From an uncultured Thermoleophilia bacterium (GTDB taxonomy: Bacteria; Actinomycetota; Thermoleophilia; UBA2241), in contig CAVUGS010000003.1 in assembly GCA_963741075.1 (NCBI GenBank), forward strand, positions 101,054 to 165,053: 64,000 nt of DNA. The letters are read 5' to 3'. The notes under the pieces were generated by a model. That model was not told the origin of the DNA. It worked only from the letters and a program-made list of their open reading frames with translations, and searched no databases. Position numbers and translations under genes: made by a program. This document shows positions 13,881 to 15,923 of the stretch, one piece after another. The stretch's first letter is position 1. Every line of letters starts with the position of its first letter.

Positions 13881-15923
13881 GTGCCAACCACGTCCAAAAA
13901 GACCCTGGCGATCATCGACGACGACACAGAGCTGCTCGGCGAGCTCACCAGGGCGCTCGGCTCCAGCTACCACGTCACCACCAGCCTGGGAGACCCGGGC
14001 ACGTTGCGGACGCTGCAGGACGACCCGCCGTCGGCGGTCGTCCTCGACCTCGACCTCGTCACGTCCGACCCCTACGAGCTGCTCCAGCTCATGGGCGGCG
14101 ACCCCGCTCTCCGCGGCACGCCCGTGCTCGTGCTCTCGTCGGCGAGCGACTTCGCCACCTTCGAGCACGCCCACCGGGCCGGCGCCGCGGAGTACGTCAC
14201 CAAGCCGTTCTCACCGGACGACCTGCGACCCAAGCTGGACGCGCTGGTCAGCGGCCGCAGGCGGCGCACCAACGGCCGCCTCAAGCTGGGCGCCCTGCTG
14301 GTCGCCAGCGGCCTCGTCACGCGGGAGCAGCTGGACGACGCGCTCGCGCGCCAGCACGACGGAGGCGGGCGCCTCGGCGAGGTCCTCGTCTCCGAGGGCC
14401 TCGTGAGCGACCAGGACATCGTCACGGCGGTCGCCGGGCAGATGCACATCGGCGTGGTCGACCTCACGCAGACCACGCCCCAGCCGGCCGCGCTCGGGCT
14501 CCTGCCGCGGGACTTCATCGTGCGCCGCCGGCTCATGCCGCTCAGCATCGACGACAACGGCAGCCTCGTGGTGGCGATGACCAATCCGCTGGACGTCATC
14601 TCCATCGACGAGATCGGCATGCGCACCAAGAAGCGCGTGGTGCCGGTCATCTGCACCGAGTCGGCGTTCGACGAGGCGGTCGGCATCTACTTCAGCTCCC
14701 GCGGCAAGCTCAAGGACGCACGCGACGACACGGAGGAGCCGGCCGCGGGCAGCGGCGAGATCGACGCCGACATCATCGAGATCGTCGACAGCCTGCTCAC
14801 CGACGCGGCGAGCATGGACGCGTCGGACATCCATCTCGAGCCCCGCGAGGACACGCTGGCCGTGCGCTGCCGCATCGACGGCGTGCTGCACGACATGCGC
14901 GAGTTCCCCAAGGAGCTGCAGGCCGGCATCATCAGCCGCCTCAAGATCATGGGCAACCTCAACATCGCCGAGCGGCGGTTGCCGCAGGACGGCCGCACGA
15001 GCTTCGAGCTCTCGAGCGGCGAGGCCGTCGACCTGCGCCTCGCCTCCATCCCCAGCATGTACGGCGAGAACCTCACCATCCGCATCCTCGAGGTCTCGCC
15101 GCTGCCGCCCACGCTCGCCTCGCTCGGCCTCGTCGGCGACAACCTCGCCCGCTTCGAGGCGGCGCTCAAGGCGCCGGAGGGCGGCATCGTCATCGTCGGA
15201 CCCACCGGCTCGGGCAAGTCCACCACCCTGTACACCACCCTCGAGCTCATCAAGTCGCCCGAGCGCAAGGTCTACACGGTCGAGGACCCCATCGAACGCA
15301 AGATCGAGGGCATCATGCAGACCGAGGTCAAACCGGCCATCGGCCTCACGTTCGCCCAGGCGCTCCGCTCGCTGGTGCGCGCCGACCCCGACGTCATCAT
15401 GGTCGGCGAGATCCGCGACCTCGAGACCGCCAAGATGGCCGCCGACTCCGCCATCACCGGCCACCAGGTGTTCAGCACCCTGCACACCAACGACGCCTCG
15501 TCGGCGGTCAACCGCCTGGTCGAGATGGGCGTGCCGCGCTACCTGGTGGCGGCCGCCTGGCGCTGCTTCGTCGCGCAGCGGCTGGTGCGCCGGCTGTGCC
15601 CGCACTGCCGCCAGGAGACGCCCATCACCGACGCCCGCTGGACGGAGCTCGGGCTGGGTCCGGCGCCGCGCAAGCGCTTCAAGGTGTTCGAGCCGGTCGG
15701 CTGCGACAAGTGCTTCGGCACCGGCTACCGCGGCCGCCTCGGGCTCTACGAGGTGCTCGTGGTGGACGACGACCTGCGCGACCTGGTCGCCACCGGCGGC
15801 AGCGTCCTCGAGATCCAGCGCATGGCCCGCGACAAGGGCGTGGGGTCGCTGCGCGAGGACGGCATCGCCAAGGTCCTCGAGGGCACGACCAGCTACCTCG
15901 AGCTGCTCCGCGTCACCATCTGA
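13881..15923 (+). CDS. receiver (REC) - MshEN/T2SSE_N - GspE/PilB-family secretion/pilus ATPase fusion
   Basis: Intact, 680 aa. The start is GTG 13881, preceded by GGGAGG, with a TAGACT -10 at 13846-13851. The REC domain has IIDDD, VVLDLD, VLVLSS and VTKPF. Tandem MshEN motifs span 14283-14441. The ATPase core has Walker A GPTGSGKST, an Asp box, Walker B DVIMVGEIRD, His box TGHQVFSTLHTND and the tetracysteine CPHC..CDKC. Confidence 0.9.
   Translation: MPTTSKKTLAIIDDDTELLGELTRALGSSYHVTTSLGDPGTLRTLQDDPPSAVVLDLDLVTSDPYELLQLMGGDPALRGTPVLVLSSASDFATFEHAHRAGAAEYVTKPFSPDDLRPKLDALVSGRRRRTNGRLKLGALLVASGLVTREQLDDALARQHDGGGRLGEVLVSEGLVSDQDIVTAVAGQMHIGVVDLTQTTPQPAALGLLPRDFIVRRRLMPLSIDDNGSLVVAMTNPLDVISIDEIGMRTKKRVVPVICTESAFDEAVGIYFSSRGKLKDARDDTEEPAAGSGEIDADIIEIVDSLLTDAASMDASDIHLEPREDTLAVRCRIDGVLHDMREFPKELQAGIISRLKIMGNLNIAERRLPQDGRTSFELSSGEAVDLRLASIPSMYGENLTIRILEVSPLPPTLASLGLVGDNLARFEAALKAPEGGIVIVGPTGSGKSTTLYTTLELIKSPERKVYTVEDPIERKIEGIMQTEVKPAIGLTFAQALRSLVRADPDVIMVGEIRDLETAKMAADSAITGHQVFSTLHTNDASSAVNRLVEMGVPRYLVAAAWRCFVAQRLVRRLCPHCRQETPITDARWTELGLGPAPRKRFKVFEPVGCDKCFGTGYRGRLGLYEVLVVDDDLRDLVATGGSVLEIQRMARDKGVGSLREDGIAKVLEGTTSYLELLRVTI

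Follow-up and report, generated by a model that had tools for sequence, protein, structure and literature searches.

A gene encoding a PilB-type ATPase with a receiver domain and a tandem cyclic diguanylate (c-di-GMP) motif at its N terminus was found at positions 13881 to 15923 (+) of a 64,000-nucleotide stretch of contig CAVUGS010000003.1, referred to here as the window. The contig belongs to a metagenome-assembled genome (MAG) of an uncultured Thermoleophilia bacterium (3.33 Mb in 29 contigs, 67% complete). On the most likely reading, to which we assign a probability of about 0.5, the protein, here called REC-PilB, would be an alternative extension motor, gated by phosphorylation and by c-di-GMP, on the type IVa pilus machine that also uses the PilB of the pilus operon. 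Within this reading, we infer c-di-GMP binding, phosphorylation at D56, the identity of the partner machine and the direction of the regulation.

The reading frame comprises 680 codons with a GTG start and the stop codon (TGA/TAA) included, and it is free of stops in translation. Third-position GC content exceeds 0.9 from about position 13870, and a Shine-Dalgarno sequence, GGGAGG, lies at 13870 to 13875 (+), 5 nt upstream of the GTG. Orthologues that are 66 to 94% identical begin and end at the same positions as the window protein.

At the N terminus, residues 10 to 118 (13908 to 14234, +) matched the Pfam receiver family Response_reg (PF00072) with 46.2 bits against a cut-off of 30.2. The active-site quintet was assigned to D13/D14, D56, S86 and K108, with Y105 as the switch aromatic, and the spacing is CheY-like, with 30 residues from D56 to S86 and 22 from S86 to K108. 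A basic linker, GRRRRTNGR (residues 126 to 134; 14256 to 14282, +), follows, in which R129, G132 and R133 are kept in orthologues. Residues 135 to 187 (14283 to 14441, +) form the MshEN_N region and matched the NCBIfam model NF053729, "c-di-GMP_motif", with 61.1 bits (cut-off 38). MshEN is defined by two 24-residue motifs of the form RLGxx(L/V/I)(L/V/I)xxG(L/V/I)(L/V/I)xxxxLxxxLxxQ joined by 5 residues. The protein has these as K135-Q158 and R164-Q187 with the spacer HDGGG, and it departs conservatively from the definition at three residues, K135 (Lys for Arg at position 1 of motif 1), I180 (Ile for Leu at position 17 of motif 2) and V184 (Val for Leu at position 21 of motif 2). A regular-expression scan in six frames, covering the 3.3-Mb genome in full, found the motif pattern at these two adjacent places only.

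The remainder of the protein comprises MshEN_C (T2SSE_N1; Pfam PF05157, 66.7 bits, above its gathering score) at residues 190 to 274 (14448 to 14702, +) and the PilB/GspE ATPase core, consisting of N2 and the C-terminal domain, at residues 295 to 677 (14763 to 15911, +), which matched T2SSE (PF00437) with 401 bits against a cut-off of 24.9. The core contains a Walker A sequence, GPTGSGKS, at residues 440 to 447 (15198-15221, +), an Asp box, VEDPIE (467-472), a Walker B sequence, DVIMVGEIRD (504-513), a His box, TGHQVFSTLHTND (526-538), and a tetracysteine zinc site formed by C573, C576, C608 and C611 (15597-15713, +). The closest solved structures are those of extension ATPases of type IV pili, namely Thermus PilF, Geobacter PilB and Myxococcus PilB, with 40 to 42% identity over residues 135 to 680. 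Using 75 sequences, AlphaFold2 produced a model with a mean predicted local distance difference test (pLDDT) score of 82, in which residues 8 to 123 adopt a (beta-alpha)5 receiver fold (pLDDT about 88) and four helices at 136 to 188 correspond to the two MshEN motifs. Because the model has a low-confidence loop at 126 to 134 (pLDDT below 50), the receiver is predicted to be tethered flexibly and not rigidly stacked; a rigid link between helix 5 of REC and the first helix of MshEN was rejected for the same reason. The first-pass annotation, made from the sequence alone, had described an intact 680-residue protein with a canonical REC domain (DDD, D56, S86, K108), two 24-residue MshEN motifs 5 residues apart at 14283 to 14441, and a hexameric ATPase core with a tetracysteine zinc site. 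The uninterrupted translation agrees with the first of these; the receiver residues were assigned correctly and the Pfam score is above cut-off, the motif positions are exact, and the PF00437 match and the four cysteines bear out the last.

All of these parts are conserved. Among 118 full-length REC-PilB orthologues, D14 and K108-P109 were present in every sequence, D56 in 117, a Tyr or Phe at switch position 105 in 117, and a Ser or Thr at position 86 in 97, whereas S86 was replaced by Ala in 20 and D13 by Asn in 15. Nearly all MshEN motif positions were invariant, as were the four nucleotide-binding boxes listed above (Walker A and B, Asp and His) and the four cysteines. Mean identity rose from 0.69 in REC, the least conserved part (range, 56 to 100%), to 0.90 in the ATPase, and all parts of the protein are under purifying selection. 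A receiver that proved degenerate on alignment, together with a full pilus operon elsewhere that clearly uses the ATPase, had been named beforehand as grounds for refuting the first reading; the receiver is not degenerate, with D14, D56 and K108 retained in at least 117 of 118 sequences.

To place the protein within its lineage, 151 genomes of the class were surveyed, 25 from the family of the source organism and 126 from ten other families. Presence was scored as a contiguous match to the REC-fused N terminus, running from within the first 9 residues to about residue 281 to 300, with the exception of one genome (G147) in which the match began at residue 28. REC-PilB was found in 23 of the 25 family genomes, spanning all seven genera, and in none of the 126 others. 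One of the two family negatives (G164) gave a 394-bit match to the ATPase core that is probably a truncated copy. The other, the closed genome G042 (1.7 Mb, same genus), truly lacks the gene and has the pilus operon, from which it follows that REC-PilB is accessory. The named relatives are uncultured Thermoleophilia MAGs, many of them belonging to the long-read soil series "MFD".

A maximum-likelihood tree of the MshEN and ATPase region (35 rows) placed the REC-PilBs of this lineage in one clade (support 99/98), sister (100/100) to an orphan PilB paralogue that has no receiver. These two were together sister to REC-less proteins of another family (G032_C18 and P0142), and the operon PilBs formed a separate clade at about 41% identity. 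The REC-less orphan paralogue is 60 to 62% identical to REC-PilB, has a perfect tandem c-di-GMP motif and occurs in some genomes of the genus only; it was not found in the source MAG. Its gene was located at L098:8750-10639 (-), L099:9567-11774 (+) and L100:9394-11343 (+) in genomes G003, G012 and G016, respectively, and in all three of these loci it is followed by a gene for a patatin-like phospholipase. REC-PilB thus originated when an orphan PilB without a receiver was duplicated, separately from the other REC-PilBs. Other database proteins with a REC-MshEN-T2SSE order (P0162, P0204, P0271, P0272 and P0280) fell elsewhere in the tree, and P0162, P0204 and their relatives were 36 to 38% identical to the Thermoleophilia protein. 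A common origin of all REC-PilBs was rejected, as an approximately unbiased (AU) test excluded a single clade of REC-bearing sequences (p 3e-5), a value to be read with the long branches, the naming of the group after the first tree was seen and the exclusion of Gmet_3473 in mind. The fusion is therefore recurrent, and its REC-MshEN-T2SSE order is shared by several small, unrelated families.

The first-pass annotation had given the impression of an ATPase without a machine. This did not hold genome-wide: contig C7 of the same MAG carries, at about 195 to 210 kb on the minus strand, a full type IV pilus cluster with PilB, PilT, PilC, a prepilin peptidase, PilM and a PilN/O-like gene. The operon PilB has a tandem motif of its own (RLGDIL...-KETRK-RLGQLL...), a second PilT is encoded on contig C29, and the genome contains one A24 prepilin peptidase. 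Among 24 genomes sampled from the genus, T2SSF was found in 20, and in these PilC, recognized by two T2SSF domains, was present as one gene adjoining the operon PilB, with no Tad-type platform; the other four are 63 to 84% complete. Each of the complete genomes G007, G041 and G066 encodes one PilC together with two ATPases of the PilB type and two of the PilT type. About 20 GGDEF genes were counted in the source genome, which makes c-di-GMP signalling in this organism plausible.

Since there is one PilC and one prepilin peptidase, both encoded in the operon with its own PilB, a shared machine is the reading that we favor. In the proposed mechanism, REC-PilB would be an active hexameric extension ATPase of the PilB family fronted by two sensory modules, the receiver being phosphorylated at D56 by a histidine kinase and the MshEN tandem motif binding one c-di-GMP. 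An accessory paralogue with a probable promoter of its own, it became fixed in one Thermoleophilia family after duplication. It would dock on the PilC/PilM of the operon's type IVa machine as an alternative to the housekeeping PilB, with phosphorylated D56 and c-di-GMP occupancy jointly setting either the ATPase activity or platform access. More tentatively, the two motors may compete for the one platform of PilC and PilM, with REC-PilB engaging only when D56 is phosphorylated and c-di-GMP is bound, an AND gate that would switch the pilus between two modes and to which an RNA element upstream of the gene (see below) might add a third, RNA-level control; we regard this elaboration as speculative.

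Several observations weigh against a shared pilus motor under this dual control. The NCBIfam PilB equivalog model TIGR02538 scored 521.3 bits, under its cut-off of 675.65, and together with the position outside the operon-PilB clade this suggests a PilB-family paralogue and not a PilB orthologue. The gene was not linked to pilus genes in any of more than 40 loci, and no histidine kinase adjoins it. CheA/CheW are missing from most of the genus genomes examined. The pilus operon of G042, present where REC-PilB is absent, indicates that the pilus does not need the protein, so co-occurrence cannot prove a shared machine. The Lys for Arg in motif 1 and the Ile and Val at two Leu positions in motif 2 could lower the affinity for c-di-GMP relative to that of MshE. 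Finally, no experimental work on a fused REC-PilB was found in the literature searched.

Some of the same observations would suit a signalling ATPase that is not a motor, integrating phosphorylation and c-di-GMP for, e.g., exopolysaccharide or envelope functions with no filament extension. The orphan position is conserved family-wide, the operon has a PilB of its own, G042 keeps pilus genes without REC-PilB, and the REC-less orphan paralogue adjoins a patatin-like gene and not pilus genes. There is also precedent for PilB as a signalling protein, in that Myxococcus xanthus PilB is reported to act in this way for exopolysaccharide (PMC5544727). However, the catalytic motifs, the zinc site and N2 are invariant at 90% mean identity, as would be expected of a working motor that fits a platform, and no candidate downstream partner was found. 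We consider a purely signalling role unlikely.

REC-PilB could instead power another, unlinked filament or secretion system, such as a competence pseudopilus or a machine like that of type II secretion, with its parts scattered in the genome. In both the window and relatives, a TfoX_N gene is located some 9 kb downstream, and PilB paralogues often serve separate systems, as do MshE and PilB in Vibrio cholerae (PMC5013675). A separate machine would, however, need its own platform protein, and only a single PilC is present in complete or near-complete genomes of the family, with one A24 peptidase in the source genome and no Tad-type T2SSF in the genus; in G007, G041 and G066 no second pilin or platform set was found. 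This explanation is therefore doubtful.

It is improbable that the fused domain is a pseudo-receiver, i.e., a constitutive protein contact that is never phosphorylated, even though no kinase is adjacent, the Pfam score is modest (46 bits), and the Ala at position 86 (20/118) and the Asn at position 13 (15/118) would fit such a domain, because D56 (117/118), D14 (118/118), K108-P109 (118/118) and Y/F105 (117/118) are kept across receivers that are 56 to 100% identical.

The first-pass annotation had speculated that the receiver is the output of a kinase of the [FeFe]-hydrogenase locus at 55 to 64 kb, and this is highly improbable: although the hydrogenase-like sensor kinase (Fe_hyd_lg_C, HisKA and HATPase_c domain matches; 57026-59335, -) shares the 64-kb window and lacks a DNA-binding partner at its own locus, its orthologue (at least 77% identity) is found in about 11 of 24 genus genomes only, the phyletic patterns disagree in both directions (G007, 100% complete, has REC-PilB and no kinase match at E<=1e-40, and G027 has the kinase and no REC-PilB), and the hydrogenase locus has receiver proteins of its own. 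The kinase is of the sensory [FeFe]-hydrogenase type, and its gene is followed by one for a REC-PAS-HATPase_c protein (55119-56653, -). In many genomes of the genus, a paralogue of the kinase (42 to 46% identical) contains one to three in-frame TGA codons, examples being G012:C5:516096-518297, G001:C13:70296-72503 and G006:C5:32723-34906. These could represent selenocysteine, frameshifts or cross-frame alignment.

Other candidate inputs to the receiver were considered. Chemosensory input through CheA/CheW was rejected, as CheW was not found in the source genome (G000) or in G007, G002 and G004 and was found only in G022. In a genome of another family (G032; L114:7230-12150), a REC-less relative of the protein lies 1.4 kb downstream of a PilS-like kinase, with six transmembrane segments and a GAF domain, and a CheY. 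The orthologous kinase-CheY pair is present in the source genome at C15:67715-69831 and is followed by a GGDEF gene (to 71635). The PilS-like kinase and CheY are thus a possible input pathway, a weak lead from one genome. Derivation of the fused receiver from the neighbouring CheY was rejected: the fused REC shares 27% identity with it, as against 58% between the two CheYs.

The 356 bp that separate accC from REC-PilB include a strongly conserved element, about 150 nt long (13639 to 13787, +), that resembles a structured RNA and was recognized by a covariance model (R1) and by compensatory changes. The element occurs as a single copy in 19 of the 25 family genomes and in none of the 126 genomes outside, always between accC and REC-PilB and on the strand of the latter. 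Its parts include two hairpins, one of them of the UUCG type, that both show compensatory changes, and an invariant CU-rich stretch. The covariation in the two hairpins (8 pairs, 30 cells) was reached by 0 of 500 shuffles, and slid controls were far lower. At the 3' end, an 11-bp GC stem and CCUUC/GAAGG precede a U-run; these pairings are nearly invariant (12 of the 16 pairs are constant across the 53 distinct sequences), and the plus strand is favored by a U-G pair that 49 of these sequences retain. There was no Rfam match to the element at gathering thresholds or at E<=10, and a known riboswitch upstream of REC-PilB was discarded as a candidate on that basis. Anti-terminator pairing between GAGACCGG and CCGGUCUC was likewise rejected, as it is not kept in other genera.

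A hexamer of the form TANNNT was found 30 to 48 nt upstream of the REC-PilB start codon in every genus examined, with varying sequence. In the window it is TAGACT (13846 to 13851, +), and this positional conservation suggests that it is the -10 box of a probable promoter belonging to REC-PilB itself. Because this box lies downstream of the RNA element at a constant distance from the start codon, the element is probably a small-RNA unit of its own rather than a simple leader, read-through control being the alternative.

REC-PilB is monocistronic and divergent from accC (12185-13524, -), and on its other side lies a gene for a PaaK-like AMP-ligase (16220-17523, -). The position as an orphan between these two genes, with no pilus genes nearby, had been noted in the first reading and was confirmed in the window and in relatives, where pilus genes were likewise missing within 10 kb. 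Relatives keep the order dnaE, PASTA kinase, M48 peptidase, GATase, MoCF and accC, then, divergently, REC-PilB, the AMP ligase and copA. The accC gene starts at a GTG at 13524, giving MFSKILIANRGEIA, and encodes a stand-alone biotin carboxylase that has no biotin carboxyl carrier protein domain; its -10 box, TATACT (13555-13560, -), lies about 30 nt upstream and is conserved in relatives. A TfoX_N-domain gene at 25155-25493 (+), about 9 kb downstream of REC-PilB, is 82% identical to the copy in relatives, where it stands in the same conserved order. In other phyla, TfoX regulates competence pili.

In this assembly, the ligase gene and copA (17681-20151, +) are each split over three frames, and many other genes are also split, including most of those in the type IV pilus operon (C7:195000-210000; two or three frames). 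Since relatives at 80 to 90% identity carry these genes intact, the splits are most likely indel errors of a long-read MAG rather than decay, and they may account in part for the 67% "completeness" of the MAG.

If the proposed mechanism is true, REC-PilB would offer a compact model of a pilus motor that integrates phosphorylation and c-di-GMP in one polypeptide, tasks that in well-studied systems fall to separate proteins. The analysis also shows that abundant uncultured soil Thermoleophilia keep two extension and two retraction ATPases for a single pilus platform. Since 2016 the architecture has been available both in publications and in Pfam, and the findings here run against no specialist expectation. 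The value of the protein is as a candidate for biochemistry.

The novelty implied by the first-pass annotation was not borne out. MshEN was solved with c-di-GMP and its motif defined by Wang et al. in 2016 (Nat Commun 7:12481, PMC5013675), and Supplementary Table 4 of that paper lists "REC - MshEN - T2SSE", with Geobacter metallireducens Gmet_3473 as the example and with beta-, gamma- and deltaproteobacteria only. A word-indexed search with residues 1 to 300 yielded no fewer than 338 clusters (90% identity), and the 120 of these that were listed each had the same three Pfam domains and were 66 to 90% identical over the N-terminal 300 residues. The first reading had named a common and already characterised architecture as a refuting outcome; the architecture is common, and no experimental paper on it was found in the literature searched. 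REC-PilB is a fairly ordinary, well-conserved, lineage-specific member of an architecture catalogued in 2016.

Proteins of the Gmet_3473 type share with REC-PilB the same three modules in the same order and a 53-residue c-di-GMP motif. They differ in their proteobacterial listing, as opposed to the separate origin found here for the Thermoleophilia protein; this comparison concerns the type and did not include Gmet_3473 itself. V. cholerae MshE, Thermus thermophilus PilF and the Geobacter and Myxococcus PilBs have MshEN_N, MshEN_C, N2, the C-terminal ATPase and the tetracysteine site in common with it, and the closest solved relatives (Thermus PilF, Geobacter PilB and the N-domain of V. cholerae MshE) bind c-di-GMP via MshEN (PMC5013675). 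These proteins lack a receiver, and their genes lie within or close to pilus operons, whereas REC-PilB is an orphan alongside an operon PilB. In Bdellovibrio Bd2402, a c-di-GMP-binding response regulator with the order REC, MshEN_N and a domain of unknown function (PMC5013675 supplement), the receiver directly precedes the MshEN_N motif as it does in REC-PilB, but MshEN_C and the ATPase are absent. Receivers that modulate an extension motor directly at the protein level are represented by Xanthomonas DrdR, a free-standing receiver that binds PilB and raises PilB/PilT ATPase activity (PMC13507683), and by the Synechocystis PatA-type regulator PixE, regulators of the PatA type being known to bind PilB1 and PilC (bioRxiv 2021.06.11.447907). 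DrdR and PixE act in trans as separate proteins, whereas the receiver of REC-PilB is fused through a flexible linker, and by analogy the fused domain would be a cis version of this known interaction between a receiver and PilB.

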